Virus record (IMG/VR): IMGVR_UViG_3300021431_000203
Coordinates: 1-42,106 of that record
From: a virus
Reading direction: 5' to 3' (one strand)
DNA length: 42,106 bases
Made by a program: the position numbers and the translations under genes. This document shows positions 18,875-32,099 of this stretch, in pieces (positions within the stretch are counted from its first letter, which is position 1; each line of letters opens with the position of its first letter). The notes below the pieces were generated by a model. That model was given only the letters and a program-made list of their open reading frames with translations, was not told the DNA's origin and made no database searches.

Positions 18875-19741
18875 TTATAAACTTACTGATTCTGCTGGGA
18901 ATTTTGCAACAACAACTTTTGATTCATCAGTTAAAGCAGCAACATAGTGTTCATCTGCACCGATTAGAGTTGTATAGTTATTTAATTCTCTTTGAGTTTC
19001 AATGTTTACATTTCTCTTCATGAAAATTGTAACGGCTGCAGTTTCATCTCCAGTTTGTGATTCTGCCTTTAATTCAACGATTGGATTTAAATATAAAGTT
19101 CCTTCGTCATTAATTGCTTTCTTACTTGGTACTATTCTAGTGTTAGCAATCATACCAATTTCACCACGCATAATAACATTGTTATTATATTTATCGTTTG
19201 AAATAAAGTTTTCATCTTTTCTTAATTCTGATACTTGATGTGGGTGAATAAACATTACTTTTTCAACGTTTTCTTCTTCCTCTAATACATCAATAGCATC
19301 AACAACGTTATTATAAGAAATACCAGTTTCAAAAGTTTTTCCTAATTGAGCACCTTTTAAAGCGTCCATAACGTCATTATCAACTTTACTAGCGATTGCT
19401 TTTGCAAGTTGTGAGTTAGTTTCTCCTACTGGATTACCATAACCACTTAATACAGCCTCGTCAGTTAATTCAACTTGTTTAACTGCCTTTTTAATAGTAT
19501 ATGGTTCACTTGTAGTTTCAAGTTTAGTTTTATCAGCATTTACGCCTTCTGCTAAATCTTCTGCATCTCCTATATACTTATATTTTGGTATTGTTATTGT
19601 ACTTCCCGGTCTTCCAACCAAAGTATTGTCAATCTTTGCGAATGGTGTTGCAACGATTGCTTTTTCTAATTTTGCACTAATCATTGGTGCCATAACTTCA
19701 GGATCAATTAATTTGTTTAATGTTGTTGTTCCTGTTGCCAT
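18875..19741 (-). CDS. Major capsid protein
   Basis: A 288-aa ORF after the scaffold gene. MATGTTTLNKLIDPEVMAPMISAKLEKAI...GRPGSTITIPKY is typical of Firmicute siphovirus major capsid proteins. Confidence 0.8.
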   Translation of the reverse strand: MATGTTTLNKLIDPEVMAPMISAKLEKAIVATPFAKIDNTLVGRPGSTITIPKYKYIGDAEDLAEGVNADKTKLETTSEPYTIKKAVKQVELTDEAVLSGYGNPVGETNSQLAKAIASKVDNDVMDALKGAQLGKTFETGISYNNVVDAIDVLEEEENVEKVMFIHPHQVSELRKDENFISNDKYNNNVIMRGEIGMIANTRIVPSKKAINDEGTLYLNPIVELKAESQTGDETAAVTIFMKRNVNIETQRELNNYTTLIGADEHYVAALTDESKVVVAKFPAESVSL

Positions 19742-19761: not shown

Positions 19762-20379
19762 TTAATTATTATATTTGTTAAATAACTCTGGATTAGATGC
19801 TTTTAATTCTATTCTTTCTTTGTAACCCATTTTGTCGAAGTCTGCCTTTGATACAACATTTTCAACTGTTTCATCAACACTTGGCATATCTACAACTTTG
19901 TTAGGGTTTTCAAATATTCCATCTTTTCCGTTTGTTATTTCCTCGAATAAATCTTTTGCAGATTTACCCATATTTGCACTATCTTTAAGTGCTGTTTTGA
20001 TTTCGTTCATAATTGCATTTTTTGTAAAATCATTTACGAACTTCTTATCACCAAATACAGAAGTTATATTTTTTGTTAAAATGTCGTCTTCTTCTTTGGC
20101 TTTTTGTTTTGCAGTTCTATCAGCCTCTTTTTGCTCATATTCTGCTATTTTTGTTTTAAGACTTTCCATTTCATCAGATTTAGGAGCATTTTCAATTTGC
20201 GATTTTAAATCAGCAATTGTAGTCTTATTATCTTCTAATTGGCTTTTGTACTCATTGTCAATTTTTTCTTTTTCTATTTTAAGATAATCTCCATGTTTAC
20301 CAAGAATACTTTTTACTTCTTCTTTAGTTAACTTAACTTTCCCTTCTCCTATTTCTAAACTTTCTAAAAAATCTTTCAT
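19762..20379 (-). CDS. Capsid scaffolding protein (GP20-like)
   Basis: ATG 20379 after AAAGGAGG; the track uses an upstream TTG. It is an acidic coiled-coil protein directly upstream of the major capsid gene. Confidence 0.75.
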   Translation of the reverse strand: MKDFLESLEIGEGKVKLTKEEVKSILGKHGDYLKIEKEKIDNEYKSQLEDNKTTIADLKSQIENAPKSDEMESLKTKIAEYEQKEADRTAKQKAKEEDDILTKNITSVFGDKKFVNDFTKNAIMNEIKTALKDSANMGKSAKDLFEEITNGKDGIFENPNKVVDMPSVDETVENVVSKADFDKMGYKERIELKASNPELFNKYNN

Positions 20380-20464
20380 AATATTTCCTCCTTTAGATTT
20401 TTTCAAGTGGTCAACTCCACCATAAAGATTTAATATCGGAGTTCTCTTCCGAACTCTTAACTAA

Positions 20465-20492
20465 ATTATAGCACAGTTTTAAAAAAACACAA
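20465..20492 (-). promoter_or_regulatory. Sigma-A-type promoter with extended -10
   Basis: Minus strand reads TTGTGT, a 16-nt spacer, then TGCTATAAT. A structured leader of about 60 nt follows. Confidence 0.6.
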
Positions 20493-20502
20493 AATCGCAT
20501 AA

Positions 20503-20526
20503 TAAAAAGCAAGATTATTTCTTGCT
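20503..20526 (-). terminator. Rho-independent terminator
   Basis: Minus strand reads AGCAAGA-AATAA-TCTTGCT, then TTTTTATT. The stop codon of the glycosyltransferase gene lies in the loop. Confidence 0.75.
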
Positions 20527-21720
20527 AGTTTTCTTTTTAGTTGTCTTTTTTGGTTTTTCTTCTAATTCTACTGTTTCTTTTGCACTTTCTTGTATTTTTT
20601 CTATTGTTTTGTCAACATTTTTAATTTTTGGTATTTCTTCTTTAAATATTCTTAATATTTCAACACCACCATTTTCTTTTAAGTATTCTGCTCTTTCAAC
20701 TGAACAAATCCATGTAGAATTTAATTCACGCCATTCTCTATTATTTTCTATATCTTGAAATCTTTTAATTGCTTTTACTTCTGCTTTCATTTTTAAATCC
20801 TCCTCATAATGTGATTTAGTTTTATCTAATAAATTGTCATATCCATCTTCTATATGTTTAAATGTAAATTTTAAAGGCGTTTTCATTTTTAATGCTATTT
20901 CGTCTGCATTTGAATTATCTATATTATAAAATAAAGCATTTTCATTATCTTTTATTCCTATTTCTTTAAAATATGGCAATTCACATACAACAATTGGTGT
21001 GCCTCTATATAATGCTTCTTTTAATGAATAACTATCTCCTTCACATGAAGAAAGTTGAACATACCAATCTGCTTTTTCCATAAATTGTCCTAATTCTAAT
21101 CTGTTTTTCACATGCACTATGTTTTTATTATTCCATATTGCATTATTTTTGTATTCATCAGTTGTGAATATATACCATATAAACTTTATTCCTTGTCTTT
21201 CCAACGCTTCTGCTAGTTTTAAATGTCTTCCATTGTCTTTTATTTTAGTTAATCTTGTTGCACTTATTAAAGTAAGCATTGGTTCTTCTTCTTCAATTGT
21301 TAATGGATTTCTACATAGTATTGTTCTATCAATTCCTGTTATTTCTTCAAAGTTCTTTTTACTTATATCTGTAATACCTATATATGTTATATCTGGTCTA
21401 TCTTTCGGAAGCCCTAATCTTTCAGTTGAATCCTTATAATCAGTATGCAAAACTGTATATTTTTTTGCGTCTTCATTTACATAATCATAAATAGATGTAT
21501 CCCAATTCGTAATAATAACATTACACTTTATTTGTTGTTGTTTATGTATATAAACTCTACAATACTTTTGTAGTCTTTTCTTTTGTTCTGGTGCAACATC
21601 TTTGCATACAACTGCAATATCATAATTTTTATACTTTTTTGCAAGTTCATAAACAAACGTTTCAACACCACCTATTGCATGTATATTTCTAACATAAAAT
21701 ATGTTTGCATGTTCAATCAT
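20515..21720 (-). CDS. GT-B fold glycosyltransferase (GT4 / Glycos_transf_1-like) with a C-terminal extension and Lys-rich tail
   Basis: N-terminus IHAIGGVETFVYELAKKY. The E-x7-E motif is SSCEGDSYSLKEALYRGTPIVV. The C-terminus is EEKPKKTTKKKTSKK. Confidence 0.7.
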   Translation of the reverse strand: MIEHANIFYVRNIHAIGGVETFVYELAKKYKNYDIAVVCKDVAPEQKKRLQKYCRVYIHKQQQIKCNVIITNWDTSIYDYVNEDAKKYTVLHTDYKDSTERLGLPKDRPDITYIGITDISKKNFEEITGIDRTILCRNPLTIEEEEPMLTLISATRLTKIKDNGRHLKLAEALERQGIKFIWYIFTTDEYKNNAIWNNKNIVHVKNRLELGQFMEKADWYVQLSSCEGDSYSLKEALYRGTPIVVCELPYFKEIGIKDNENALFYNIDNSNADEIALKMKTPLKFTFKHIEDGYDNLLDKTKSHYEEDLKMKAEVKAIKRFQDIENNREWRELNSTWICSVERAEYLKENGGVEILRIFKEEIPKIKNVDKTIEKIQESAKETVELEEKPKKTTKKKTSKK

Positions 21721-21736
21721 CTAATCACCTAAAATA

Positions 21737-21765
21737 ATTATATCACAAAAAGAAAAGACTGTAAA
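21737..21765 (-). promoter_or_regulatory. Sigma-A-type promoter with extended -10, overlapping the upstream terminator
   Basis: Minus strand reads TTTACA, a 17-nt spacer, then TGATATAAT. Confidence 0.6.
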
Positions 21766-21774
21766 ATTACAGTC
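21747..21774 (-). terminator. Rho-independent terminator
   Basis: Minus strand reads GACTGTA-ATTT-TACAGTC, then TTTTCTTTTT. Confidence 0.75.
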
Positions 21775-22130
21775 TATTGTATCTTCCAAGCACAACGCAT
21801 AATTCTATTACTTGGATTAAATGTGTCTATTATATCGCCACCAATAATAGCAGTAATATGTCCGTCCATTGTTACGGCATACCTTCCGTATGGGTGTTCT
21901 TGTGCAAACTCGCCCACGGTCTTTGAATAATGACACTCTCTAGGGTATCGGTCGTCCAAATAATCCTCGACAAACTCCACCCTATCAAACATCATACTAA
22001 CATCACCCGCTAAATCCGTAAGTTCATCGTACATATCACGCCAACTTTTACCAGTTAATACAGACAAACTACGGATAACGCAGTCTGATATATCCCTATT
22101 ATGTGGGTTTTGATTATGATAAACAAACAT
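21774..22130 (-). CDS. Small putative papain-like (Cys/His) hydrolase, GC-rich relative to neighbours
   Basis: NQNPHNRDISDCVIRSLSVL (Gln plus Cys) and TMDGHITAIIGGDIIDTF (His plus Asp) suggest a C-H-D arrangement. My hand GC counts on two 60-nt lines gave 43% and 48%, against about 22% in the adjacent glycosyltransferase gene. Confidence 0.45.
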   Translation of the reverse strand: MFVYHNQNPHNRDISDCVIRSLSVLTGKSWRDMYDELTDLAGDVSMMFDRVEFVEDYLDDRYPRECHYSKTVGEFAQEHPYGRYAVTMDGHITAIIGGDIIDTFNPSNRIMRCAWKIQ

Positions 22131-22131
22131 A

Positions 22132-22605
22132 TTATCTCATACTATTTTGTAATGATTGCATTAACTGTTGTTTTTGTTGTGGCGTTTCAGCCTCTTCTTT
22201 TAACACCATGATGAAGTCTTCAAGTGCTTTTACCATATAGTGGAAACTCTTATCGGTTTCTTCACCTGCACCGTATCTATTACGTGATTCCATATAACGA
22301 CCATAATCATCATACATTCTATCTAAATGCTCGTGTCCTCTATATTTCATATCATAACCACGTCTTCCATAATTACCTCTGTCGTAGTCTCCATAGTTAT
22401 CACGTCCATAACTATCATATCCAGCACGTCTTCCACGTCCATAATTTCCATATTCTCCGTACATTTCTTTATCCTCCTTTGCCATGTGTTTTATTTTACT
22501 TAATTTATATAAGTGGTCTAGGTTGTTTGTGTTTATATCTTCATCAAGTATGTGTTTAATCTTCTCATCGACCTTTTCTATTACTTTGTCTTCCAAATTA
22601 CTCAC
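22132..22605 (-). CDS. Tyr/Gly/Arg-rich low-complexity protein
   Basis: Central segment MYGEYGNYGRGRRAGYDSYGRDNYGDYDRGNYGRRGYDMKYRGHEHLDRMYDDYGRYMESRNRYG. The start is uncertain: GTG 22605 or TTG 22596 after AAGGAG. Confidence 0.65.
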   Translation of the reverse strand: MSNLEDKVIEKVDEKIKHILDEDINTNNLDHLYKLSKIKHMAKEDKEMYGEYGNYGRGRRAGYDSYGRDNYGDYDRGNYGRRGYDMKYRGHEHLDRMYDDYGRYMESRNRYGAGEETDKSFHYMVKALEDFIMVLKEEAETPQQKQQLMQSLQNSMR

Positions 22606-22780
22606 TCCTTTCTTTTAAGAGTTTTAATATTTCTTCTTGGTTTTTAATAATTTTTTCAAAATACTGTGTATCTTGCTTTTGTAATTCTTGCATTAAATCA
22701 GTATTGTTAAAGTCTTTAAACAGTATTTCTAAACTTAATATTTGTAATATTAATGATGATATATCTAAATTATTCTTCAT
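22598..22780 (-). CDS. Hypothetical protein (60 aa)
   Basis: Track ORF, TAATG-coupled to the upstream gene. Confidence 0.6.
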   Translation of the reverse strand: MKNNLDISSLILQILSLEILFKDFNNTDLMQELQKQDTQYFEKIIKNQEEILKLLKERSE

Positions 22781-23253
22781 TATCTATTAAGCCTACTTAT
22801 ACTAAATGTAGCATTAGTTATAATTGCCTGTGTAGTTGCTATTGGTGTTGTAGGTGTAGTTGGTGTTGGTACGCTTGGAACTGATTGAACTGATATATTA
22901 GTTGTTCCACGTGGGCAAACTCTTAATTTCTTATCAAATGAAACAGTTTCATAATCATCGGCTGCTGCAATTGTTACGGCTCTAACTGTGTCAGGTATTA
23001 ACACTCCATCTTGGAACAAACCTATTGCCACAACCCCCGGAGTTGCTGTACTTACCGAAGCACTAAACTCTACATCATAATAGCCTGTGTATCCGTTTCC
23101 AAATATTTTAAAGTTAGGATTGCCGTTTGAATAATCTAACCAACCATTGCAACTACAAGAAGCACATCTTGTTCTAATGTCAGTTTCATCAAAAGTTATA
23201 GGACTTGCATTACTTGGCAATGCTAATGGTTCATTTATAATTGTTTCTATCAT
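22780..23253 (-). CDS. Beta-sandwich protein resembling BclA C-terminal / C1q-TNF-like domains, with a Thr/Pro-rich segment (157 aa, trimmed start)
   Basis: ATG 23253 after AAAGGAGA. The pattern FKIFGNGYTGYYDVEFSASVSTATPGVVAIGLFQDGVLIPDT...NISVQSV...ATFSISRL resembles C1q/BclA-CTD strands. Also present are VPSVPTPTTPTTPIATT and a CASCSC motif. Confidence 0.45.
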   Translation of the reverse strand: MIETIINEPLALPSNASPITFDETDIRTRCASCSCNGWLDYSNGNPNFKIFGNGYTGYYDVEFSASVSTATPGVVAIGLFQDGVLIPDTVRAVTIAAADDYETVSFDKKLRVCPRGTTNISVQSVPSVPTPTTPTTPIATTQAIITNATFSISRLNR

Positions 23254-23276
23254 ATTATTTCTCCTTTCAATAAATT

Positions 23277-23303
23277 TGCACAATATAACACGAATTTTGT
23301 GCA
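23277..23303 (-). promoter_or_regulatory. Inverted repeat enclosing an extended -10 (candidate operator/promoter)
   Basis: Minus strand reads TGCACAA-N13-TTGTGCA, and the N13 contains TGTTATATT. It lies upstream of the C1q-like gene. Confidence 0.45.
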
Positions 23304-23350
23304 TTTTTCATTCTATATAAGTCTATAAAACCAATTATTGTACATTTTTG

Positions 23351-23388
23351 TTTTATAAAATAAAGAGAATAGAACTATGCCTATTCTC
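23351..23388 (-). terminator. Rho-independent terminator
   Basis: Minus strand reads GAGAATAG-8 nt-CTATTCTC, then TTTATTTTAT. Confidence 0.7.
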
Positions 23389-23414
23389 CGTTAAGTACCG
23401 TTAAGTACCGTTAA
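23388..23414. repeat. 10-bp tandem repeat (ccgttaagta x2.7)
   Basis: ccgttaagta at 23388-23397 and 23398-23407, then ccgttaa at 23408-23414. It lies in the 3' UTR between the stop at 23462 and the terminator. Confidence 0.9.
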
Positions 23415-23425
23415 ATTAGCAAGTT

Positions 23426-23452
23426 CTCGTAATCGAGCGTGTCGTAATCGAC
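23426..23452. repeat. Pair of near-identical mini-hairpin motifs
   Basis: ctcgtaatcgag at 23426-23437 and gtcgtaatcgac at 23441-23452. Each has a 4-bp stem around taat and both share the core tcgtaatcga. Confidence 0.85.
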
Positions 23453-23461
23453 TATATGCTA

Positions 23462-24376
23462 TTAAATAAATTGACTTGTTGTGTTAAATCCACAGCCACA
23501 ACCGTTGTTTTGTGGGCAACTGAAAATCGCAGTGCGTCCATAGACCGGTGTTGACGGAATAGGGCAATTGACTAGGCGGTTATACATTAAATCAATTTCA
23601 TTATTTAATGAATTTGATATAAATGCGTTTTGAGCAGTTTGACTAGCTCTTAAATCAGCCATTTGTAATTGTCTATTCAAGTCAGCTATTTTTGAATCTT
23701 TTTCATCTATTCTATCTCTGAAAAGTTCATCTTTTATAGACTGAATTCCACCAGTAATCGCTGTTAGTAATGTTTGAGTGTTTTGAGTATCACTCGTTCT
23801 TGTAGCACAAGCCTCACGAGCAATATCAGAACCTAAATTAGCAATACCTAATCTGTTCTCACAGCAACAGTTGTCAAGTGATTTTTGAAGCCCATTAAAT
23901 CCTTGAAGTGTAGCAATTTGATTGTTGAAACTTTGATTCATGTTAGCCATTTGTCTGTTGCAAGCAGCAATTTCTGAATTATAGAATCCATTAGAAACAT
24001 TGCTATTTATACTTGCAGTTGAATTGCAAATAGCGTTTTGTATATCATTTACATCGTCTCTAACACCCTCAATTTGGTTGCTTAAATGTAATGAGTTAAA
24101 TCCATCACTTGTTTGGTTCATAATGTCTTTTTGACCGTTGCTTAACCAAGCATAACCATTGTCAAATGAGTTTCCTCCGAAGAATCCACCGTTACTATTA
24201 CCCCAGTTTCCACCAAATAATGCAAGTAATAATATTACCCAAATAAAGTCGTTTCCATAACCTCCGAAACCACCGTTTCCATAACCACCCATCATAGGAT
24301 ATACTGGATATGGATAAAATCCGTTTCCGTTGTTGTTAGTAGCCAATTCTACTGTTGGTTGAATGCCTCCATTCAT
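23462..24376 (-). CDS. Gly-rich / single-TM / Cys-containing coiled-coil protein of unknown function (304 aa, trimmed start)
   Basis: ATG 24376 after GAGGAGGAG. The N-terminus is GGYGNGGFGGYGNDF, the TM segment IWVILLLALFGG, then GNSNGGFFGGNSF. An N/Q/S-rich region carries DNCCCEN, and the C-terminus is CPQNNGCGCGF. Confidence 0.7.
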   Translation of the reverse strand: MNGGIQPTVELATNNNGNGFYPYPVYPMMGGYGNGGFGGYGNDFIWVILLLALFGGNWGNSNGGFFGGNSFDNGYAWLSNGQKDIMNQTSDGFNSLHLSNQIEGVRDDVNDIQNAICNSTASINSNVSNGFYNSEIAACNRQMANMNQSFNNQIATLQGFNGLQKSLDNCCCENRLGIANLGSDIAREACATRTSDTQNTQTLLTAITGGIQSIKDELFRDRIDEKDSKIADLNRQLQMADLRASQTAQNAFISNSLNNEIDLMYNRLVNCPIPSTPVYGRTAIFSCPQNNGCGCGFNTTSQFI

Positions 24377-24466
24377 AAATCTTTCTCCTCCTCTCAAATA
24401 AATATTTAAGACGCTAGAAATCTTATAAGGAAGTACTATCTAGCATAATACCCCCTTACAAGACTT

Positions 24467-24709
24467 TTAGCCTTGCTTATTTTGATTAAACATTCCCATC
24501 ATTTGTTCCCATTGTTGGCGTTGTTGTGGATTAAATCCGTTTACTGTTTCATTTAATAAATCCTGTGGATTATTGTTCTTTCTTGCTTCTTGATACCTTT
24601 GAAACGCTTGTGGATTTGTTGCTTTCAAGTTTTTCTCCATCTGTGAAATCAACTGTTGTGGTATTTGTTGCATTTTGTTTTGCATTAACATTTTTAACAT
24701 CTGCATCAT
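24467..24709 (-). CDS. Gln/Met-rich small protein (80 aa)
   Basis: MMQMLKMLMQNKMQQIPQQ...QQRQQWEQMMGMFNQNKQG. GAGGAAAG lies 10-11 nt upstream of the ATG. It overlaps the upstream ORF by about 140 nt in the +1 frame. Confidence 0.5.
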   Translation of the reverse strand: MMQMLKMLMQNKMQQIPQQLISQMEKNLKATNPQAFQRYQEARKNNNPQDLLNETVNGFNPQQRQQWEQMMGMFNQNKQG

Positions 24710-25097
24710 TTTCTATCTTTCCTCTCAATTCTTCAATTTGTGCTTGTAAGTATTCTATTTGCATGTCTTTTGCGTCTTTTGGAACTATCTCATTTAACTC
24801 ATAAGATTTTATATCGCCCTTCGTGTTTTTAATCCACATAACCGTCATATCTTTGCTAAAAAATGGTGTGTCATAATAAACAACCTCTTTATTAACATCA
24901 TCAATAGTATTAACAAACCTCATTGTGTGATTAGTAGGGGCTAGTTGAAAGTTTTGAGTTAAGTTTGTAGGCTGTGGTGTTTGAACTGGTTGTTGCATTT
25001 GTTGACGCATTTTTTCTAATTGTGATATTTGCTCATTTATTTTATCTAGGTTTGCTTGTGGATTATATACATTATTAAAATATGGATTATTATACAT
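24570..25097 (-). CDS. Gln/Asn-rich protein (175 aa, trimmed start)
   Basis: ATG 25097 after AAGGAG; the track uses GTG 25103. MYNNPYFNNVYNPQANLDKINEQISQLEKMRQQMQQPVQTPQP... Confidence 0.65.
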   Translation of the reverse strand: MYNNPYFNNVYNPQANLDKINEQISQLEKMRQQMQQPVQTPQPTNLTQNFQLAPTNHTMRFVNTIDDVNKEVVYYDTPFFSKDMTVMWIKNTKGDIKSYELNEIVPKDAKDMQIEYLQAQIEELRGKIENDADVKNVNAKQNATNTTTVDFTDGEKLESNKSTSVSKVSRSKKEQ

Positions 25098-25113
25098 TTT
25101 CACATCTCCTTAA

Positions 25114-25164
25114 TTAATATAAGAAAAAGAGACATGATATGATTAGTGGTTGAATTGGTTTCAT
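25114..25164 (-). other. Leader mini-ORF (16 codons) embedded in a promoter-proximal terminator
   Basis: AAAGGAGA, 7 nt, then ATG. MKPIQPLIISCLFFLY*. The ATG lies in the 5' arm of the hairpin and the ORF ends after the T-tract. Confidence 0.35.
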
Positions 25165-25175
25165 ATCTCTGTCTC
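25123..25175 (-). terminator. Promoter-proximal intrinsic terminator / attenuator
   Basis: Minus strand reads GAGACAGAGATATGA-18 nt-TCATATCATGTCTC, then TTTTTCTT. It lies downstream of the promoter at 25189-25197 and upstream of the RBS of 25097. Confidence 0.65.
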
Positions 25176-25188
25176 CTTTCTTGATTAA

Positions 25189-25197
25189 ATCATACCA
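25189..25197 (-). promoter_or_regulatory. Extended -10 promoter element (TGGTATGAT)
   Basis: Minus strand reads TGGTATGAT, between two terminators. Confidence 0.45.
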
Positions 25198-25220
25198 TTT
25201 TTAATAGTGTAAAAAAGGGT

Positions 25221-25244
25221 AAAAAAAAGAACTTTTTAAAGTCC
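25221..25244 (-). terminator. Rho-independent terminator
   Basis: Minus strand reads GGACTT-TAAA-AAGTTC (one G-U pair), then T8. The stop codon of 25236-26447 lies in the loop. Confidence 0.65.
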
Positions 25245-26447
25245 TTTAATTTTATCATTTACTCTTTTAAATATTTTCTTCACGCCGTCATAGGTATAAT
25301 TATATTTGTTGCTTACTTGCAACGCAGATTTATTATTAACAAAATAATCATAACAAATTTTGTAGTCTAGGCTATCTTTATCTGTTACTTTTAAAATGGT
25401 TTCTTCAAATAAGTTATTCGGCATTCCTTTATATAATGGTTTATAAGTTTTCTTAACGAGTTTAGATGTGATATATGAAAGACCGACACCAAGCATTATA
25501 GGTATTAATATACTTATTCCAAGTGGTGTAGTAATTCTATTTAGTATATAGTAGGTTAGGTTTGATACGATGAAACATTGTTTCATACTAGGTAAATGAA
25601 AAGGTTTGCCGAATGTTCGTTTGCTTAACCAAAATGAAGTTAGGATAAACAAGCATTCAATAAATGTGTCGTTTAGTCTTGCAACTAATAATATTATAAC
25701 TATTGTTAAGATGTTCCAAATTAAACTTAAAATGAAATAAATGATATAAGTTAATTTTGTTTCTTTGTCTAGTTCTTTAAAGTTATGCAAGTTTCTTCGC
25801 AATCTTTTTGGCAACTTTAACAAGTTTGCTTTCGTCTGCGAAAATGAACCAACTGTTATTCCACATATCTTCTTCTCTCCTTCCATAAAATATAATCTAT
25901 TAGTTATTAACAATAATAGAATATAATCAAATGATAATAAAGCATTTAATACAAAGCTATTTTGTTCTTGATAATTTATATTTCTAATAAACAAAGTTAT
26001 TGCTTGATAAAATATGCTAACTAAAAATGTAATTATTATTCTTTTCAAAATTTTATTTTTATATTTCAAGTTTATTATATTAACAGATAAAAACATAAAA
26101 GCTATATCTATAAACATATTAATAGTTACATCATGAATTTTATTTTCAAAAATTTTTAAGCATACACCTAAGATAGTTAATATCAATGAATATATTTTGA
26201 TTTGTTTACTATTGCTTTTGAATATTAAACTTATTAAAAAATAAGTGTATAAATATAATACTATAAAATCATATAAATTTGCCATATAAAATTTGTGTAA
26301 CAAAATATCAATTTTAATTATCACTTGGTTATCAGTAGTTAATCCAAAATAATCCAACCCCACTATCTTCATTATAAACGTTATTACGAGTAAAAACGTG
26401 TAAACTTTCAAACTTGTGCTTAAATATTTGTCATAATCTTTAAACAT
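25236..26447 (-). CDS. Polytopic membrane protein (about 10 TM segments) with a soluble C-terminal helical (HTH-like) tail
   Basis: A 403-aa ORF, hydrophobic throughout. The C-terminus is SLDYKICYDYFVNNKSALQVSNKYNYTYDGVKKIFKRVNDKIKGL. Confidence 0.7.
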   Translation of the reverse strand: MFKDYDKYLSTSLKVYTFLLVITFIMKIVGLDYFGLTTDNQVIIKIDILLHKFYMANLYDFIVLYLYTYFLISLIFKSNSKQIKIYSLILTILGVCLKIFENKIHDVTINMFIDIAFMFLSVNIINLKYKNKILKRIIITFLVSIFYQAITLFIRNINYQEQNSFVLNALLSFDYILLLLITNRLYFMEGEKKICGITVGSFSQTKANLLKLPKRLRRNLHNFKELDKETKLTYIIYFILSLIWNILTIVIILLVARLNDTFIECLFILTSFWLSKRTFGKPFHLPSMKQCFIVSNLTYYILNRITTPLGISILIPIMLGVGLSYITSKLVKKTYKPLYKGMPNNLFEETILKVTDKDSLDYKICYDYFVNNKSALQVSNKYNYTYDGVKKIFKRVNDKIKGL

Positions 26448-26460
26448 ATTCCCCTCCTAC

Positions 26461-26491
26461 AAAAAAAGCGAGGTAAACAGATAAACCTCGC
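26461..26491 (-). terminator. Rho-independent terminator placed immediately upstream of the next RBS
   Basis: Minus strand reads GCGAGGT-10 nt-ACCTCGC, then T7, then GTAGGAGGGGAATATG. Confidence 0.75.
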
Positions 26492-26499
26492 AAAAAACA

Positions 26500-26895
26500 T
26501 TATACACTTTTGTTTTTCTTTTTGTCAACGACTGTGTTTCGACAACTTCTAATAAATTCAATTTCGCTTGTTATGTAAGAATTTGCATTTAATTGATTGT
26601 GATATTTGTCATACAATTCTTCAATATGTGTATAATCATTGTCAGTTCTCGTTAATCCATTTCTTAAACTACCACTAAATTGTAGTATTTCATATCGGAT
26701 TCTATCTCGCTCGTTTATATCAACTTTTTCATCAACTTTTTTTATTTGTTTACTCAAAGTTTCAATACCAAGCAACTTCCCACATATCTTCCCAAGCCAT
26801 GTAAAAGGATTTATTTTAATAGGTGATATTTCTATCCCTATCATTGCCAAAACGCCTAAAAGTACACCATACTGCTCAATAATCTTTTGTATCAT
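26500..26895 (-). CDS. Single-pass membrane protein (131 aa, trimmed start)
   Basis: ATG 26895 after GGAGGA. TM segment YGVLLGVLAMIGI, then a soluble helical domain. Confidence 0.6.
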   Translation of the reverse strand: MIQKIIEQYGVLLGVLAMIGIEISPIKINPFTWLGKICGKLLGIETLSKQIKKVDEKVDINERDRIRYEILQFSGSLRNGLTRTDNDYTHIEELYDKYHNQLNANSYITSEIEFIRSCRNTVVDKKKNKSV

Positions 26896-26958
26896 ATCAT
26901 GTCCTCCATTATCTGACACAATAATTATAACATGGTTTTTTACTTTTGACAAAGTCGG

Positions 26959-27135
26959 TTATTTTACTGTTTCTTTTTCAATTATAATCTTATTATCTTT
27001 TGCATAAACTCTTATAAAATCATCTTCCTTTATGCAACTTTTTTGTAATACTTCCTTTGGAACATTTACAATATAGCAGTTGACTTTTCGTTCGCCAGTT
27101 CTACTATAATAATAATTTTTGTTTAATTTAGGCAT
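26959..27135 (-). CDS. AbrB/MazE/SpoVT-type (swapped-hairpin) DNA-binding protein (58 aa)
   Basis: Below the track cutoff. ATG 27135 overlaps the upstream stop as TAATG. VNVPKEVLQKSCIKEDDFIRVYAKDNKIIIEK aligns with B. subtilis AbrB VVIPIELRRTLGIAEKDALEIYVDDEKIILKK. Confidence 0.65.
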   Translation of the reverse strand: MPKLNKNYYYSRTGERKVNCYIVNVPKEVLQKSCIKEDDFIRVYAKDNKIIIEKETVK

Positions 27136-27422
27136 TATTCAACCTCCTTTAAAACATCTCTTAATTCTTTTATATCTTCTTCATAATTGCAAGGTATATT
27201 ATCGTATTCAAATTGTGGTCTATTTAATATCTCATTAGCCTTGTATATTTTGGATTGTAAATTGTTTAATTTTTTTAAATTTTCTAATATATACCAATAT
27301 TCATATTCATAATCGCTAGTGCAATCAATATAACCGCTTTCTTCAACATCTTTAATATATTTTTCAAGCGTTATTTTGTTGTCCCAATACTTATGTTTTT
27401 CTTTTAAAACAAATTCATTCAT
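27135..27422 (-). CDS. Hypothetical protein (95 aa)
   Basis: Track ORF with ATG start. Confidence 0.65.
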   Translation of the reverse strand: MNEFVLKEKHKYWDNKITLEKYIKDVEESGYIDCTSDYEYEYWYILENLKKLNNLQSKIYKANEILNRPQFEYDNIPCNYEEDIKELRDVLKEVE

Positions 27423-27701
27423 TTACTCCACTTCCTTTTCAATCTTTTTACCATTTATTTTTATTTCAAAGTTTTTCATATTTGAACCTAAACCAATACT
27501 TTTTTCTATTCGCTTTTGTAAAGATAATATCGGGCATTTTTTTAATGCTTTCTTTTTGATTCTTCTATTTTTAGTTCTATGATATATTTTTAAATATTGT
27601 TGTGGGTCTATTAACGGTATTACATATTCTCTATCGTAATCACCCAATATAATTGGGCTTTTACATATAATCCCACCTTTTGTAAATTTAGGTATTTTCA
27701 A
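27423..27701 (-). CDS. Hypothetical basic protein (92 aa)
   Basis: Track ORF with TTG start. Confidence 0.55.
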   Translation of the reverse strand: MKIPKFTKGGIICKSPIILGDYDREYVIPLIDPQQYLKIYHRTKNRRIKKKALKKCPILSLQKRIEKSIGLGSNMKNFEIKINGKKIEKEVE

Positions 27702-27702
27702 T

Positions 27703-27882
27703 TTACGACACTTCCTTTTCTTCTTTATCTTCTATTTCTATTATTCTTGTATATCTTACAAATTTTCTTGTTTTATTATTACTATATCTTATTTCACTTA
27801 TTGATGGTACTACTTGCAATGATATATTATAATCTTCTTCATTTAGTTCATTTATCATTTGTTTCAAGTCTTCTAATTTCAT
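27703..27882 (-). CDS. Hypothetical protein (59 aa, trimmed start)
   Basis: ATG 27882 after GAGGTGG. Confidence 0.5.
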   Translation of the reverse strand: MKLEDLKQMINELNEEDYNISLQVVPSISEIRYSNNKTRKFVRYTRIIEIEDKEEKEVS

Positions 27883-28081
27883 TCCATTCCACCTCACTTT
27901 TAAATAAATCTTCTAATTGAATTATAATTTCATCTAAATTTAAACAACCATTAAACAATATGCTTTTTTCTTCACCATAGTTATCATAATAAACCATAGT
28001 GTCAAATTTATGCCCAAAATTCCAATAACTTATTTCATTTATTGTAATATATTCATTTCCATTACTAAAAGTTATTTTCAT
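27848..28081 (-). CDS. Hypothetical protein (77 aa)
   Basis: Track ORF with an ATGA overlap with the upstream gene. Confidence 0.6.
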   Translation of the reverse strand: MKITFSNGNEYITINEISYWNFGHKFDTMVYYDNYGEEKSILFNGCLNLDEIIIQLEDLFKSEVEWNEIRRLETNDK

Positions 28082-28482
28082 ATTTCCTCCTTAAATAAAT
28101 CATTTATTGGTTTCCATTCTTCATCAGATATAATACCACGGTCGTGTTTTTCTTCTAGGTTGTAATAACATTGTTTAAAATAACGGTCGCTATGTTCTGG
28201 AAAAAACAGTTTAATTATACATCCTGTTTCCTCAATACAAAAATCAAGTATTTCATTATAATATTTGTTATTATATTTAATATTTCTTTTTGATAATTCA
28301 TTAATAACAACATTTACATAATCATAGAAATATTGCTTATCATAATCTTTAACATAACTAACCAACCTATGTTTTAATGTTCCTTTTTCCCATTGCCTTT
28401 TAATAGCAATACATTCTCTCCATTGGCTAACTAACATTTCTTTAGGTAAAACTGGAATAAGTTTATAATGCCATAGTCTCAA
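28078..28482 (-). CDS. Pyrimidine-dimer DNA glycosylase-like protein (T4 endonuclease V / TIGR02328-like)
   Basis: The N-terminus MRLWHYKLIPVLPKEMLVSQWREC and FPEHSDRYFKQCYYNLEEK match the conserved MRLWH..LI..LP...L..QhRE and YPEH motifs of the Firmicute DenV-like family, as recalled. TTG start. Confidence 0.65.
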   Translation of the reverse strand: MRLWHYKLIPVLPKEMLVSQWRECIAIKRQWEKGTLKHRLVSYVKDYDKQYFYDYVNVVINELSKRNIKYNNKYYNEILDFCIEETGCIIKLFFPEHSDRYFKQCYYNLEEKHDRGIISDEEWKPINDLFKEEI

Positions 28483-28483
28483 T

Positions 28484-28801
28484 TTAAATCATCTCCTTTT
28501 TATAATAATCTTTCAAAATTAATTCTTTAACTTGTTCATCGCTTAATGGATTACTAATACTATCAAAGAATATTAATCCATGTGTAATAATTTTATATGG
28601 TTCATTTAAATGTTGCACAACAACGGTTGTTTCACATCTAATTTGTTTGTCTTCTTTTGCTAATTCGTTTTTTAATTTAATTATTTGTTCTACATTATTT
28701 CTTTCTAAATGATATCCATTTTTTTCTAAAAAAACATACATATCATTATCTATTTTTTTTGACATTTGTCTAGCATATTCGTTCATTAATTCATCTAACA
28801 T
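28484..28801 (-). CDS. Hypothetical protein (105 aa, trimmed start)
   Basis: ATG 28801 after GGTGA; the track uses GTG 28813. Confidence 0.6.
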   Translation of the reverse strand: MLDELMNEYARQMSKKIDNDMYVFLEKNGYHLERNNVEQIIKLKNELAKEDKQIRCETTVVVQHLNEPYKIITHGLIFFDSISNPLSDEQVKELILKDYYKKEMI

Positions 28802-28824
28802 TTTAATCACCACACTTCCTCTTG

Positions 28825-29055
28825 TTAAATAAATTTATAAAACATTTTACCTTTTCTAACATAAAATTTAATTGGTCTTATAATATGTTCTTTTTCAGTA
28901 TCATATTCAAATTGCCAATAATACATATCTTCCGGCATTTTAAATTTTTTATTTTGTTTCTTAATTTCTTGCCAGTCCCTATATGCGTCCCACAATGTTG
29001 GATATGCCTTTATATATCCTTCTTGTTCACCATATAATACAATTTCTTTGTTCAT
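28825..29055 (-). CDS. Hypothetical protein (76 aa)
   Basis: First gene after the promoter at 29087-29115. Confidence 0.6.
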   Translation of the reverse strand: MNKEIVLYGEQEGYIKAYPTLWDAYRDWQEIKKQNKKFKMPEDMYYWQFEYDTEKEHIIRPIKFYVRKGKMFYKFI

Positions 29056-29086
29056 AATTACCTCTCCCTTTCTTAACTACACCTAT

Positions 29087-29115
29087 ATATTAACATATAT
29101 ACATATAAATGTCAA
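29087..29115 (-). promoter_or_regulatory. Strong sigma-A-type promoter
   Basis: Minus strand reads TTGACA, a 17-nt spacer ending in TGT, then TAATAT. Confidence 0.7.
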
Positions 29116-29136
29116 CACTATTAATTTAATGTAAAC

Positions 29137-29164
29137 AAAAAAAGAACTATTTTGTTTTAGTTCT
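29137..29164 (-). terminator. Rho-independent terminator
   Basis: Minus strand reads AGAACTA-8 nt-TAGTTCT, then T7. It overlaps the stop of the minor capsid gene. Confidence 0.8.
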
Positions 29165-30358
29165 TCTATAACCACTTACGGTTAATCGTTTCATTTTCGT
29201 AGGTAATCCACTAATTTGTGATAACTCTTTATATTTTTGTGTTAACTTTGTAATATTGCTTTGTGCCGTTCCTACAAGTTCCATATCACCACTCGACTTG
29301 GCTAGTATTTGTATGTCTTTCTGCTCACGTATGGCACGTTCTAATTGGCGTTGGAGTTGTGTACCCTCGTATAGTGAATAGTGTTTGCCGTCTAATATAA
29401 AACCTTTGTTATTATCATCTATTTTCTTTTGTAATTCCTCATCAGTATATGTAGGCTTACTAACACCTAGTACAATACTAAATATGTAATGATAACAATT
29501 CATTTCACTAATAGGACGGTGTGAGCCATTGTCGTCGTGGTCTAATGAATATGCCTTACCTTTGTAATCAATAGCCACGCCACCACTTTGTAATTTATTA
29601 AACTCCTCATTACTAAATTGTCGTCCTTGTACGTTTTCGTGGTCGTCTGCTGGGTTTTCGTGTACCGATATTTCTACACCATCAGCCCCAAACTCTTCAC
29701 CGTATATCTTTTGTAATTCGTTGTGTAGTTCCCTTAATTTACTTTTAAGGTGCATACGAACGGTGCTATCAAGTCTAACTTTTCGCCCACTTTTATAATC
29801 AACAGTTTTTAAGCCACTGCCACCTATATCTTTTAAAATACGCCTCATAGAACTGTCAAAAGTTTCCTTACCTTGCGACACGTTAAGTAAAGCCTCGTCA
29901 AGTACATAGTTGTATGTGTCTTTTAAATTCATAAATTCGCCGTTTATAGTAAAACCTAGCAAGTTCGCACGTGTGTAGTTATACATCTCGTTTTTAACAA
30001 TATTAGCAAGTGCCCTAGTTTGCATTTTAAGGGCTGTATTTTCGGTGAAAGGTACAAAAGGTATATTTCTATACTTATAAAACTTTTCATAGAATAATTG
30101 GTCTCTTTTTGCGTAAGAATTGAATATATTGTCTATATCTTGTATGTTCAAGTCGGTGTACTTGGCTATTTGTCGCACTATTTCGTCATAATTGCCACCA
30201 TATTTAAGTATTTCAACAAGTTGGTGGGCTTGGCTTGGTGTAAGTTCCTTTATTTGCCTTAAAGCACTACCTATTTTTTTATAAAAGAATATATTTGCCT
30301 TGTTTATTCGTTCAACCAAACGCTCGGTTAAAAATTCAATTTGGCTTTCGTTTATCAT
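29147..30358 (-). CDS. Minor capsid / head morphogenesis protein (SPP1 gp7 / Phage_min_cap2-like)
   Basis: A 403-aa ORF. The N-terminus QIEFLTERLVERINKANIFFYKKIG and the central VHENPADDHENVQGRQF...EMNCYHY resemble the gp7/minor-capsid-2 family. Confidence 0.65.
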   Translation of the reverse strand: MINESQIEFLTERLVERINKANIFFYKKIGSALRQIKELTPSQAHQLVEILKYGGNYDEIVRQIAKYTDLNIQDIDNIFNSYAKRDQLFYEKFYKYRNIPFVPFTENTALKMQTRALANIVKNEMYNYTRANLLGFTINGEFMNLKDTYNYVLDEALLNVSQGKETFDSSMRRILKDIGGSGLKTVDYKSGRKVRLDSTVRMHLKSKLRELHNELQKIYGEEFGADGVEISVHENPADDHENVQGRQFSNEEFNKLQSGGVAIDYKGKAYSLDHDDNGSHRPISEMNCYHYIFSIVLGVSKPTYTDEELQKKIDDNNKGFILDGKHYSLYEGTQLQRQLERAIREQKDIQILAKSSGDMELVGTAQSNITKLTQKYKELSQISGLPTKMKRLTVSGYRRTKTK

Positions 30359-30385: not shown

Positions 30386-30409
30386 CAAAAAAGGATTGTT
30401 AAAATCCTT
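30386..30409 (-). terminator. Rho-independent terminator
   Basis: Minus strand reads AAGGATT-TTAAC-AATCCTT, then TTTTGTG. Confidence 0.75.
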
Positions 30410-32099
30410 ATTCGTTTGATTTATATTTTATATAAACTTGTGATGGTGTTATTTCAGTTTCTATGTTTAAGGTATTATTTCCGTCTATTGTTGATATATT
30501 TGGTAGTGTTATTGATTCTTCTGTTGGGGTTGCTAATACATAGTCTACTGTTACATTATTAGATTGTAGCCATGTTGTAAAATCAGTTAATGTAGTTATA
30601 TTTGGTACTCTCATTACAATATCATTATAATATTCATTGTTTATTGCACCATAGCCTATTCCTACATTGCCTTGATATATTGAGCCTCTGCTGTTTGCTA
30701 ATAACATATTACAAAAAATTGGAGGCATTGTAAGGCTTTCAGTTCTAATGTTTTTACCATCGATTTTTATACAATTCATACCTTCTCTTATCATTTTTAT
30801 CTGTTCGTCACCAATTAATGTATATTCTTTTATATTTCTAACAGCCTTACCATTTATAAAATCAATGTAATCACTATATCCATCTATTTTTCTTAATGGT
30901 TCATCTAGGTATATATTTGTTGTTTCGTTGTAGTATGGAATGTATTTTGATGGTGCTATTGAGCCTTCTACTATCATGATACTGTCTAATATTTGTTGTT
31001 TGCTAGTAGTATTACTATTCTTACCACAATAAAATAATAAATATTTGGCAGTAGAAGACGTAGTATATACGCATTGCGTTTCAGTAGTTCCATCGTTATA
31101 TTTGAAAAAATTTGTAGTTTGTATTCCTTGAACCGGAATTTCTGAAGTACATCCAACTCTAAATCTATTATTTGCAGTATCAGATTGCAACATTTTTTTT
31201 AAAACATATGCAGTATTTGGTTTACATTCAATATACACAATATTATCATAATTCGAAGGATTCCCGTTTCCACTTACAACGCCTGTCCCACTTAAATAAC
31301 CGCCATAAACATTAGCATTATCTTTATCAAATAAATTTTCACTTCTAACATTAACCGGTATTTTATATTTGCCATAATTAATATCACTTGTATCAGTTAT
31401 TAAATCTCCACAACTTACCATTTCTTGTGGATAATCTGGATTAGGGCTTGGCTGACCTCCTGTATATTCTTCATATGTATCAATCGGATTTGTTGATACA
31501 ATTATGTCTTTTATTTCATATACAGCATCACTAACATTAGCAGTGTTTTCTGCTTGAAAAACCATTTGGTTTGCTATTATATCTGTTGATACAGTTTGCT
31601 TAACTGAATATATTACAAATTCATTAGAAACTCGATTATTAGTAATGCGTGTGTTAGTAGCATAAGTTGTACCATTATATAATCTACCACCATAACTTAG
31701 TATTGAGGCGGTCCCACTCTTCAATCTAACTTTAAATGTTGTGTATAATTCATCACCTGCTTTTAGTGGTATATCATTGATATTGACATAAAATGTGCTT
31801 GCACGAGCTAATGGGGTTGTAGTTATTACTCCATTATCAACTGTACAACGAAGTCTTGCGGTCATATTTTTATCATCTAATAAATTCTTTCCACTTGTAG
31901 TATTCTGGTATGTATTACCATACACTTTATAATCTTTTAAATCCTTACCAATACCACCAAAGGTAATAGGCAAAGTTGTACTTGTTTTTTCTCTTAAAAA
32001 GCCACGTTCAAATACAACCTCACCGTTTTTTAAAATCTTATCTATACTTTCATTGTCTTTATAAATAAATCCTATTTGTTTGTTTGCTTTCATTATCAT
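30408..32099 (-). CDS. Fibre / receptor-binding-like structural protein (563 aa)
   Basis: A beta-rich, N/T/S/Y-rich ORF. The motifs YGNTYQNTTSGKNLLD and GGQPSPNPDYPQEMVSCGD recur in Firmicute phage fibre proteins, as recalled. Confidence 0.5.
   Translation of the reverse strand: MIMKANKQIGFIYKDNESIDKILKNGEVVFERGFLREKTSTTLPITFGGIGKDLKDYKVYGNTYQNTTSGKNLLDDKNMTARLRCTVDNGVITTTPLARASTFYVNINDIPLKAGDELYTTFKVRLKSGTASILSYGGRLYNGTTYATNTRITNNRVSNEFVIYSVKQTVSTDIIANQMVFQAENTANVSDAVYEIKDIIVSTNPIDTYEEYTGGQPSPNPDYPQEMVSCGDLITDTSDINYGKYKIPVNVRSENLFDKDNANVYGGYLSGTGVVSGNGNPSNYDNIVYIECKPNTAYVLKKMLQSDTANNRFRVGCTSEIPVQGIQTTNFFKYNDGTTETQCVYTTSSTAKYLLFYCGKNSNTTSKQQILDSIMIVEGSIAPSKYIPYYNETTNIYLDEPLRKIDGYSDYIDFINGKAVRNIKEYTLIGDEQIKMIREGMNCIKIDGKNIRTESLTMPPIFCNMLLANSRGSIYQGNVGIGYGAINNEYYNDIVMRVPNITTLTDFTTWLQSNNVTVDYVLATPTEESITLPNISTIDGNNTLNIETEITPSQVYIKYKSNE

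Follow-up and report, generated by a model that had tools for sequence, protein, structure and literature searches.

Hendrix and colleagues reportedly described morons, autonomous promoter-gene-terminator insertions among phage structural genes, first in HK97 and HK022. Insertions between head genes are a known concept, and so are phage-carried agr quorum-sensing genes: the C. difficile myovirus phiCDHM1 has an agr3 cassette of agrD, agrB and agrC (PMC4124054). Mycobacteriophage virions are glycosylated by Che8-type glycosyltransferases (Freeman et al. 2023, as cited in PMC11256854). Here we describe the head region of a 42,106-nt stretch of viral DNA (IMG/VR record IMGVR_UViG_3300021431_000203, positions 1-42,106; the window), the genome of a rumen siphophage in which an 8.7-kb island separates the minor capsid gene from the scaffold gene. 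The island is a variable-gene hotspot and not a single system, and two of its four modules (A to D in transcription order) are conserved in the lineage rather than sporadic.

An initial annotation, made from the sequence alone, had described a block of ~8.6 kb and about 20 non-assembly genes splitting the head genes, and this description was borne out. The block (20515-29055) contains 19 minus-strand open reading frames (ORFs), 18 of them non-overlapping and one (24467-24709) overlapping, and none of the 19 matches a virion-assembly family in Pfam, PHROGs or NCBIfam. We compared it with 24 IMG/VR contigs whose minor capsid protein is 56-97% identical to that of the window, and with 64 loci from a scan of species-representative genomes, all of which lie on phage-sized contigs of metagenome-assembled genomes (MAGs) from ruminant guts. 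The gap between minor capsid and scaffold genes ranges from ~1 to 11.7 kb in these relatives. From minor capsid gene end to head-tail connector gene start, the distance is 2,702 bp in L007, 3,521 bp in L016, 4,438 bp in L010, 10,289 bp in the window and 13,404 bp in L033. Since it runs from 2.7 to 13.4 kb among 12 genomes, the split of the head genes is real and its site is hypervariable. For this lineage, such a split is unusual. Among GenBank phages, the window's minor capsid protein is less than 33% identical to anything, and megablast of positions 20000-30000 finds no match.

These comparisons directly give the module boundaries, homologies, conserved residues, changes of position and variation in content. 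Related phages differ in presence and absence of island genes; most module A genes and the AgrB-like gene of module B are missing at this site from many of them. The four modules differ in evolutionary behaviour, so the island is not the single accessory system that had been proposed. The term moron-like fits modules A and B, but not module C, which is conserved in the lineage, or module D, a near-fixed part of the head region. In line with the expectation that an undescribed accessory system would be located here, the island contains both a host-derived gene and a multi-gene cassette that appears to be undescribed.

This cassette, module C, consists of seven genes (c177, c80, c311, c174, c60, c157 and c118). 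Among the 30 relatives in which the minor capsid match is full-length, 17 have it, and the others are partial contigs, none of them shown to lack it. With its varying position, this distribution does not agree with a sporadic moron. In the window and in L012, L023, L029, L030, L032, L033, L037, L039 and L040, the cassette lies in the head gap. L016 and L019 have it upstream of the terminase region, and in Butyrivibrio phage Ceridwen (22484-26447 of MN882553), Dulem virus 33 and Bajarodcaudo virus 5 it comes after the lysis genes. In the complete 37-kb L010 contig (37.2 kb, covered end to end) it is not at the head site but between the genes for a small membrane protein and a PG_binding_1/Peptidase_M15_3 endolysin. 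All three kinds of position are operon boundaries. The cassette families co-occur in 47 of 65 loci, and Ceridwen, Dulem virus 33 (a temperate phage) and L054 have the same families in another order, with c118 first, which argues that the cassette is an old functional unit. Homologues of c311 and c118 number at least 7,971 and at least 7,918, respectively, both lower bounds from 8,000 scored candidates each, and none of the matches listed has a Pfam domain or a functional name. With at least ~7,900 unannotated members in each of these two core families, the cassette ranks among the larger unexplained gene sets of gut phages.

For c118, a confident AlphaFold model (predicted local distance difference test score, pLDDT, 88.5) predicts a papain-fold arrangement: a helix starts at Cys17, and two successive strands bear His91 and Asp102. 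These three residues, a papain-fold Cys-His-Asp set, are invariant in 61 sequences, and Asn6, Asn8, Pro9, Asp16 and Arg20 are invariant as well. A Foldseek search of the Protein Data Bank (PDB) gave nothing significant (best E-value 0.26, TM-scores 0.4-0.5), the weak top neighbours including the C39 peptidase domain of ComA, Tae4, Josephin-2 and UfSP2. Against viral predicted structures there are 21 significant matches with TM-scores up to 0.81, all to uncharacterised proteins. ComA C39, Tae4 and Josephin share with c118 the nucleophilic cysteine at a helix start (DC motif) followed by His and Asp strands; unlike them, c118 has no sequence-family match, comprises 118 amino acids (aa) and stands alone without a transporter partner, and its true relatives are the uncharacterised phage proteins. 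As a lone domain it is also present in Tsamsa-like Bacillus phages, Geobacillus phage GBK2 and Lak megaphages.

In c311, a Gly/Phe/Tyr-rich N-terminus and a single hydrophobic helix come before two helices of ~90 residues, a CCCENRL turn and a conserved Cys-rich C-terminus (CPxPSTPVYGRTxIFxC..GCGCG). In the alignment of its homologues (P0001-P0120), alternative blocks for the two long helices occur in varied combinations, and this mosaicism points to frequent recombination within the gene among rumen phages. The sequence pattern of c174 suggests a beta-rich protein. It is 85-97% identical in relatives whose minor capsid proteins are only 57-69% identical, and 93% identical between the window and L039, whose major capsid proteins have no significant similarity to each other. 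An exhaustive search for c174 fused to informative domains yielded none; the long matches were spurious (META-domain or low-complexity) apart from one c311-c174 chimera.

Of the remaining cassette proteins, c177 is conserved in 25 MAG loci (33 homologous ORFs over all fetched loci) and has distant versions in Ceridwen, Dulem virus 33 and L054. c80 was detected independently in relatives (34-84% identity) and is a separate ORF of 66-76 aa in the distant modules. About 140 nt (24570-24709) code in two frames, the Lys/Ser-rich C-terminal extension of c177 running over the start of c80; each frame is detected in relatives, and the distant modules have no such overlap. c60 is 51-78% identical in 22 loci, with a weak XPC-binding/STI1-like match below the Pfam cut-off, and c157 is conserved in 21 loci and in the distant modules without a family match. 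Inspection by eye found no signal peptide in any of the seven proteins and a membrane segment only in c311.

The cassette is preceded by a leader in which an extended -10 element is followed, after a few bases, by a long hairpin with a Shine-Dalgarno-like 5' arm and a 3' arm that runs into a U-run. Between the end of the leader and the ribosome-binding site of the first cassette gene are ~10 nt (10-15 nt across loci). The window hairpin has a minimum free energy of -18.3 kcal/mol (z -5.0), and folds across loci range from -12 to -27 kcal/mol (z -2.9 to -6.2). Equivalent hairpins occur in ~20 loci, and their arms differ in sequence yet stay complementary. This complementarity is seen in folds of individual loci; MAFFT with RNAalifold did not align the arms. 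Most loci have an inner hairpin with the conserved loop UUUAAAAC, which the window lacks, and the loop motif GTTTAAAACAC is not enriched in the window. A 16-codon ORF within the leader (25164-25114) is not conserved, and Rfam contains no RNA family that matches anywhere in the window. From its sequence, the leader looks like a promoter-proximal attenuator, and the hairpin may be an undescribed attenuator or antitermination target. Equivalent leaders were noted in L012, L016, L020, L023, L024, L033, L034, L036-L038, L040, L044 and L075.

Module B is a single gene for a 403-aa multi-pass membrane protein that matches AgrB (PF04647, which we take to be MEROPS family C75) at aa 222-323 (E-value 1.1e-8, 35.1 bits versus a cut-off of 23). 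It consists of a variable N-terminal membrane half, an AgrB-like part (aa 222-340) and a C-terminal tail of ~60 residues. Compared with canonical AgrB of ~190-200 aa, it thus has ~220 extra N-terminal residues and a soluble tail, which by eye looks like a sigma-70 region-4 helix-turn-helix. The catalytic residues of S. aureus AgrB are H77 and C84. His284 and Cys291 of the window protein, which correspond to the catalytic pair and lie in the motif FGKPFHLPSMKQC, are invariant in 21 aligned homologues, and the C-terminal half is highly conserved. In a profile comparison, this motif aligns with FAFGLHAPNSTSC (HAPNSTSC) of the canonical AgrB of contig L099, His284 and Cys291 being seven residues apart (HxPSxxxC).

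The AgrB-like family has 976 members, and most of those listed are on contigs of ~40 kb or less; tblastn against GenBank phages gave no match. Two homologues are located on long bacterial contigs. L099 (137.7 kb, 25.5% guanine plus cytosine, GC) has a full-length homologue (57% identity) between genes for a LytTR response regulator and an AgrC-like kinase. The opposite strand encodes a canonical 200-aa AgrB and a 40-aa AgrD (MKLVAKVLAVIGAVAATVGTTGCSFLICDEPKMPKSLLNK; in abbreviated forms MKLV...TGCSFLICDEPKMPKSL and MKLV...CSFLICDEPKMPKSLLNK), and SpoIIR, CtpB and FtsK genes are neighbours. On L098 (190 kb, 26.5% GC), a 52% identical homologue adjoins a gene for a short HATPase_c_5 protein, near SpoIID, MreB and SecA genes. 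Positions 9149-13404 of L099 form a complete agr-like locus with two AgrB-type genes, the canonical one beside AgrD and a 399-aa paralogue between the AgrA-like and AgrC-like genes. As its homologues on bacterial contigs are found at the agr locus of low-GC spore-forming Firmicutes, the phage gene is a copy of a host agr-locus-associated gene.

The phage itself has no AgrD, AgrC or AgrA and no conserved AgrD-like peptide. A short ORF after the AgrB-like gene (MKPIQPLIISCLFFLY) was considered as AgrD and rejected, since it has no conserved cysteine and is not itself conserved. The conserved feature on the 3' side of the AgrB-like gene is the RNA hairpin, which accompanies the cassette with or without this gene. 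From sequence, we infer that the AgrB-like protein interferes with, or takes over, the processing of the host agr peptide during infection.

Module D encodes a 401-aa GT-B-type glycosyltransferase. Its match to PF00534 (E-value 1.4e-5, 25.1 bits) is just under the cut-off of 26.4, and it matches PHROG glycosyltransferase families with E-values of 6.8e-8 (phrog_2170) and 2.2e-4; in relatives, this position is taken by unmistakable GT1 and GT2 genes. The C-terminal ~90 residues (~20515-20793) form a conserved domain with a lysine-rich tail (..KKTTKKKTSKK), for which no family match was found. This domain, of ~65 aa (MIKCEVIE.FTL...VGD.FEC...VVKVIEVEP) and followed by a lysine-rich C-terminus (KKKKTSKK, for example), is in every case found just upstream of the scaffold, either free-standing or, as in the window, fused to the last enzyme. 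A glycosylation set with this domain precedes the scaffold in seven of the eight relatives examined, L007 being without it, and module D is for this reason a near-conserved member of the head region.

Composition of the set varies. Upstream of the scaffold are a GT2 and a 316-aa protein in L010, two GT2 and a 108-aa protein in L016, three GT2 in L012, an M23 peptidase, a GT2 and a 318-aa protein in L023, and a GT1-GT2 fusion, a methyltransferase and a 100-aa protein in L029. L033 has a GIY-YIG/NUMOD-like gene, two GT2 and proteins of 218 and 96 aa, and L039 has two GT2, a DUF4422 protein and a 108-aa protein. Candidate targets of glycosylation are virion proteins, by analogy with mycobacteriophages, and the Pro/Thr loop of c174.

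The nine genes of module A are ordinary variable cargo. Their GC content (24-26%) is as in early regions. Only four recur in relatives, among them the genes for the glycosylase, the AbrB-like protein and the 150-aa protein, and the others are without a match there. The 134-aa protein resembles T4 endonuclease V (DenV), a pyrimidine-dimer DNA glycosylase; the match is limited to the N-terminal 73 residues.

In the initial annotation, promoters and terminators divided the island into self-contained transcription units. Hairpins and promoter-like sites do break it up, but several of the listed signals are unsupported. Terminator-like hairpins are enriched (nine found versus 2.5 expected), and the best promoter-like matches fall in intergenic gaps (29115-29087, 26528-26499, 21765-21737 and 23311-23282). 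The promoter proposed ahead of module A is a good intergenic match (10 of 12 positions), as a match to consensus. Two internal promoters (23311-23282 and 21765-21737) are good matches as well, whereas the one at 25189 is the extended -10 element of the cassette leader (TGgTATGAT) without a good -35. A scan confirmed hairpins at 23389-23364, 21775-21756 and 20526-20508 for the terminators listed at 23351, 21747 and 20503. The terminator listed at 26461 is visible as a hairpin with a U-run at ~26492-26462; with a loop of 10 nt, it was overlooked by the scanner. For 29147 and 25221, the terminator scan gave nothing and any stem would, by eye, be A/T-only, and the signal at 25123 is the 3' arm of the conserved leader hairpin (25180-25124). 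Because the promoter ahead of the AgrB-like gene matches at 12 of 12 positions and is directly followed by a GC hairpin and a T-run, this gene may also have a leader or attenuator.

Table 1. Location of island modules, signals and neighbouring genes (window positions unless a contig is named)
Feature	Position	Strand	Match or remark
Large terminase	34769-36310	(-)	First in transcription order
Portal	33388-34764	(-)	
Three genes (209, 216 and 563 aa)	30408-33388	(-)	Between portal and minor capsid
Minor capsid protein 2, SPP1-gp7-like	29147-30358	(-)	Upstream island boundary; PF06152, E 3.7e-50
Promoter-like site before module A	29087-29115	(-)	TTGACA-17-TAATAT with TG; in 92-nt gap after minor capsid gene
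Module A, nine genes (76, 109, 134, 77, 64, 92, 95, 58 and 150 aa)	26500-29055	(-)	
134-aa DenV-like Pyr_excise protein (A)	28078-28482	(-)	PF03013, E 1.3e-13, above cut-off
58-aa AbrB/MazE-like protein (A)	26959-27135	(-)	PF04014, E 0.004, weak
150-aa protein, hydrophobic N-terminus (A)	26500-26952	(-)	phrog_37604, E 1.5e-11
Sigma-70-like promoter, then GC hairpin and T-run	26462-26528	(-)	12/12 (26528-26499); GCGAGGT..ACCTCGC; ahead of AgrB-like gene
Module B, 403-aa multi-pass AgrB-like membrane protein	25236-26447	(-)	PF04647
Module C cassette	21774-25193	(-)	
Cassette leader (C)	25124-25193	(-)	Extended -10 (TGgTATGAT), then long hairpin (25180-25124)
c177 (C)	24570-25097	(-)	Gln/Pro-rich N-terminus, small beta-rich domain, coiled coil, Lys/Ser tail
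c80 (C)	24467-24709	(-)	80-aa Met/Gln-rich helical protein
c311 (C)	23462-24376	(-)	304 aa from Met8; phrog_16490, E 1.7e-22
Intrinsic-terminator-like hairpin	23364-23389	(-)	After c311
c174 (C)	22780-23253	(-)	157 aa from internal Met; Pro/Thr-rich loop (SVPSVPTPTTPTTP)
c60 (C)	22598-22780	(-)	60-aa helical protein, Met/Gln-rich
c157 (C)	22132-22605	(-)	Tyr/Gly/Arg-rich low-complexity stretch between two helical ends
c118 (C)	21774-22130	(-)	Small (118 aa), predicted papain fold; phrog_3754, E 4.7e-17
Terminator hairpin overlapping promoter-like site	21737-21775	(-)	Hairpin 21775-21756; site 21765-21737, 11/12 with TG
Module D, 401-aa GT-B-type glycosyltransferase	20515-21720	(-)	
Lysine-tailed domain (D)	20515-20793	(-)	
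Lysine-tailed domain, relatives	L010 13147-14097; L016 12847-13173; L033 13758-14048; L039 12745-13071		
Terminator-like hairpin	20508-20526	(-)	Closes island
Scaffold	19762-20379	(-)	Downstream island boundary; PF06810, weak, E 4.7e-7
Major capsid protein	18875-19741	(-)	3' of scaffold; PF25209
Amidase_2 endolysin	9019-9951		
HNH/NUMOD and GIY-YIG-like genes	37559-38077; 38437-39039	(-)	
HNH/NUMOD and GIY-YIG-like genes, relatives	L010 11272-11847; L033 10679-11458; L027 13115-13978		

The window corresponds in essence to the whole of a metagenomic contig of 42,066 bp (ENA ERZ12302815 NODE_1622). Its genes all lie on the minus strand, with a GC content of ~29%; those outside the head region include genes for tail proteins, HNH endonucleases, a DNA methylase and a DnaB-like helicase. 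As the ORFs of the 42-kb genome gave no integrase, recombinase or repressor module, the phage looks virulent. The longest scaffold ORF is 19762-20406; the ATG at 20379 is the likely true start, as the L016 scaffold begins with the same MKDFLE. The junction of portal and minor capsid genes is a second variable site (15-63 bp in eight relatives, 2.2-3.4 kb in the window and four others), and the 216-aa protein encoded in the insertion matches Phage_tail_C (PF24243). Homing-endonuclease genes of HNH/NUMOD and GIY-YIG-like type are scattered across these genomes, including the variable head gap and the Ceridwen cassette, and may drive the shuffling of modules.

Taken as a whole, the island is best explained, with a probability that we put at about even, as an insertion-tolerant operon boundary with four modules, of which A and B would be cargo, C host-directed and D concerned with glycosylation. 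The gap between minor capsid and scaffold genes would be a boundary that tolerates insertions and has gathered four independently evolving modules, A and B being the true variable cargo among them. Every biochemical activity and target in this account is putative. The protein of module B would be a membrane cysteine peptidase of the AgrB family, extended by a further membrane domain and a helix-turn-helix-like tail on the cytoplasmic side, and in infection it would act on AgrD or the agr circuit of the host itself. It might, with the AbrB-like protein of module A, shift density- or sporulation-linked decisions of the host in favour of the phage. Module D would be one member of the glycosylation set that precedes the scaffold, its lysine-tailed domain perhaps docking the enzyme to the target.

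Module C would stand as a unit of its own, seven genes with a promoter-proximal hairpin leader and terminators that belong to it, kept across the lineage and in distant Firmicute phages while moving between operon boundaries. Signal peptides are lacking, c311 alone has a membrane segment, and the best-conserved cassette protein does not follow the capsid type. Our preferred reading, of low confidence, is therefore a complex on the cytoplasmic side of the host membrane that would act on the cell instead of forming part of the virion; the papain-fold protein might process a partner or a host protein. A bolder version, which we regard as improbable, sees in the cassette an undescribed self-contained system that thousands of Firmicute phages of gut and rumen share. 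In the infected cell, this system would form a structure tethered to the membrane and possibly condensate-like, which does not depend on virion type, is switched on via the hairpin leader and is possibly glycosylated by the neighbouring transferases. Its components would be the papain-fold enzyme, the coiled-coil membrane protein with FG-like Gly-rich flanks and a Cys-rich tail, and the Gln-rich and Tyr/Gly/Arg-rich low-complexity proteins.

Several observations weigh against the account of cargo, host-directed cassette and glycosylation module. Promoter-like sites as a whole are at chance level (68 found versus 70.6 expected). The AgrB profile is covered only at positions 12-109 of 185, so that the window protein does not show full-length AgrB architecture, and we know of no described role for the long AgrB paralogue in bacteria. 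The cassette proteins gave nothing informative in Pfam, NCBIfam, PADLOC or PDB sequences, including profile searches of PDB sequences with c118, c174 and c177; the one PADLOC match in the island, to the AgrB-like protein (E-value 0.008), was taken as noise. The AlphaFold model of c311 is of low confidence (pLDDT 54) and too poor for a fold search. The cytoplasmic-face location is drawn solely from the lack of signal peptides as judged by eye, and c311 could instead be a virion protein in which the hydrophobic helix is buried. Cassette GC content (33-35%) is like that of structural and not early genes, the cassette is always in late-gene territory, and a presence this close to universal is typical less of cargo than of an essential function. 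Assignment of a host from MAG bins was tried and rejected, as cassette contigs were binned to Erysipelotrichaceae, Clostridia, Tenericutes, Bacteroidales and others.

Part of this evidence would suit a different reading, to us an unlikely one, in which the cassette, and possibly the glycosyltransferase, is virion-associated (as capsid decoration, as internal or ejection proteins or in a glycosylated surface layer) and the island is mostly an unrecognised morphogenesis module. The relatives examined have the cassette, always on the late-gene strand, and its GC content is like that of structural genes. The Gly-rich, hydrophobic, coiled-coil make-up of c311 broadly recalls tape-measure or pilot proteins, whose hydrophobic segment the small Met/Gln-rich c80 and c60 could, as a weak point, chaperone. 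The Pro/Thr-rich loop of c174 is a plausible O-glycosylation site near a glycosyltransferase, the glycosylation set lies directly before the scaffold in seven of eight relatives, and glycosylation of phage virions is known (Freeman et al. 2023, as cited in PMC11256854). Against a virion role stands the 93% identity of c174 across phages without detectably similar major capsids. Phages with unrelated head and terminase types (Ceridwen, Dulem virus 33, Bajarodcaudo virus 5) have the cassette too, next to lysis genes; it is equipped with its own leader and terminator-like hairpins, and its proteins showed neither a match to structural-protein families nor, for c174, co-variation with capsid type.

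The presence of the cassette directly beside holin and endolysin genes in four independent genomes raises a somewhat more doubtful possibility, an accessory lysis or egress device in which a membrane-anchored coiled coil, a small cysteine peptidase and helpers act on membrane or wall late in infection. The transmembrane helix, long helices and conserved cysteines of c311 have a layout generally like that of i-spanins, and the peptidoglycan amidase Tae4 is among the weak structural neighbours of c118. However, 12 kb separate cassette and endolysin gene in the window and its closest relatives, and the end of the lysis module is itself an operon boundary where cargo accumulates. By eye, neither a signal peptide nor a wall-binding domain is seen in c118, and spanins are not needed by single-membrane bacteria such as the known and likely hosts. 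Of the seven proteins, five are small helical or low-complexity ones for which no lysis analogue is known.

Classical lysogenic-conversion morons, expressed from a prophage for the benefit of the host, would account for units flanked by promoter-like sites and terminator-like hairpins. The usual conversion locus, between lysis genes and integrase, is where the temperate Dulem virus 33 has the cassette, and the agr genes of phiCDHM1 are in its lysogenic conversion module (PMC4124054). We consider this very improbable for the window: a 42-kb genome without an integrase makes conversion the wrong frame, and recombinase and repressor module are lacking too. All 64 matches in the genome collection are phage-sized MAG contigs and not chromosomal prophages, and Ceridwen was observed in the lytic cycle only (PMC7372960). 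An anti-defence or inter-phage competition system, such as superinfection exclusion or counter-defence, would fit an autonomous, widespread and position-mobile cassette with mosaic recombination inside c311 and a membrane-anchored protein, generally typical of exclusion systems, but is the least probable reading, as PADLOC gave no matches, a fixed set of seven conserved genes is unusual for exclusion and c174 is highly conserved and not diversifying. The Gly-, Tyr/Gly-, Gln- and Cys-rich proteins beside a glycosyltransferase also called to mind a spore-coat-like cassette, a reading not adopted because no coat family was matched and, to our knowledge, Butyrivibrio, the one cultured host, does not sporulate.

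The island offers a concrete, testable case of a virulent rumen phage with a copy of a host agr-locus gene. This copy points to uncultured spore-forming Firmicutes with 25-27% GC as the likely host group. Ceridwen, as the one cultured cassette carrier, makes experiments possible, and a glycosylation set with a shared lysine-tailed domain before the scaffold raises the possibility of protein glycosylation in Firmicute phages. For annotation, the island is a warning that genes between head genes are neither all structural nor one single island. The AgrB-like paralogue, the seven-gene cassette with its hairpin leader and the lysine-tailed glycosylation set appear to be undescribed.

Each module can be set beside a described system. 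Like the agr3 genes of phiCDHM1 (PMC4124054), the AgrB-like gene is a phage-borne homologue of a host agr gene, with ~50-70% similarity to bacterial versions. It differs in being a single gene without AgrD or AgrC, in lying in the head region of an apparently virulent siphophage, and in encoding a 403-aa paralogue that matches the first half of the AgrB profile rather than a canonical AgrB. What the glycosylation sets share with those of mycobacteriophages (PMC11256854) is one to four glycosyltransferases encoded by the phage, some accompanied by a methyltransferase or by a gene that resembles, by eye and with no Pfam match, a nucleotidyltransferase gene. Unlike the mycobacteriophage genes, they lie immediately upstream of the scaffold and not near the genome end, and they end in the conserved lysine-tailed domain. 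The closest parallel for the island as a whole is with the morons of HK97 and HK022, with which it shares extra genes among conserved head genes, promoter-like sites and terminator-like hairpins, and content that varies between relatives. In contrast to these morons, it is a multi-module block of 8.7 kb in a phage without an integrase, with a seven-gene unit that changes position instead of presence or absence and another module that is near-fixed in the head region.

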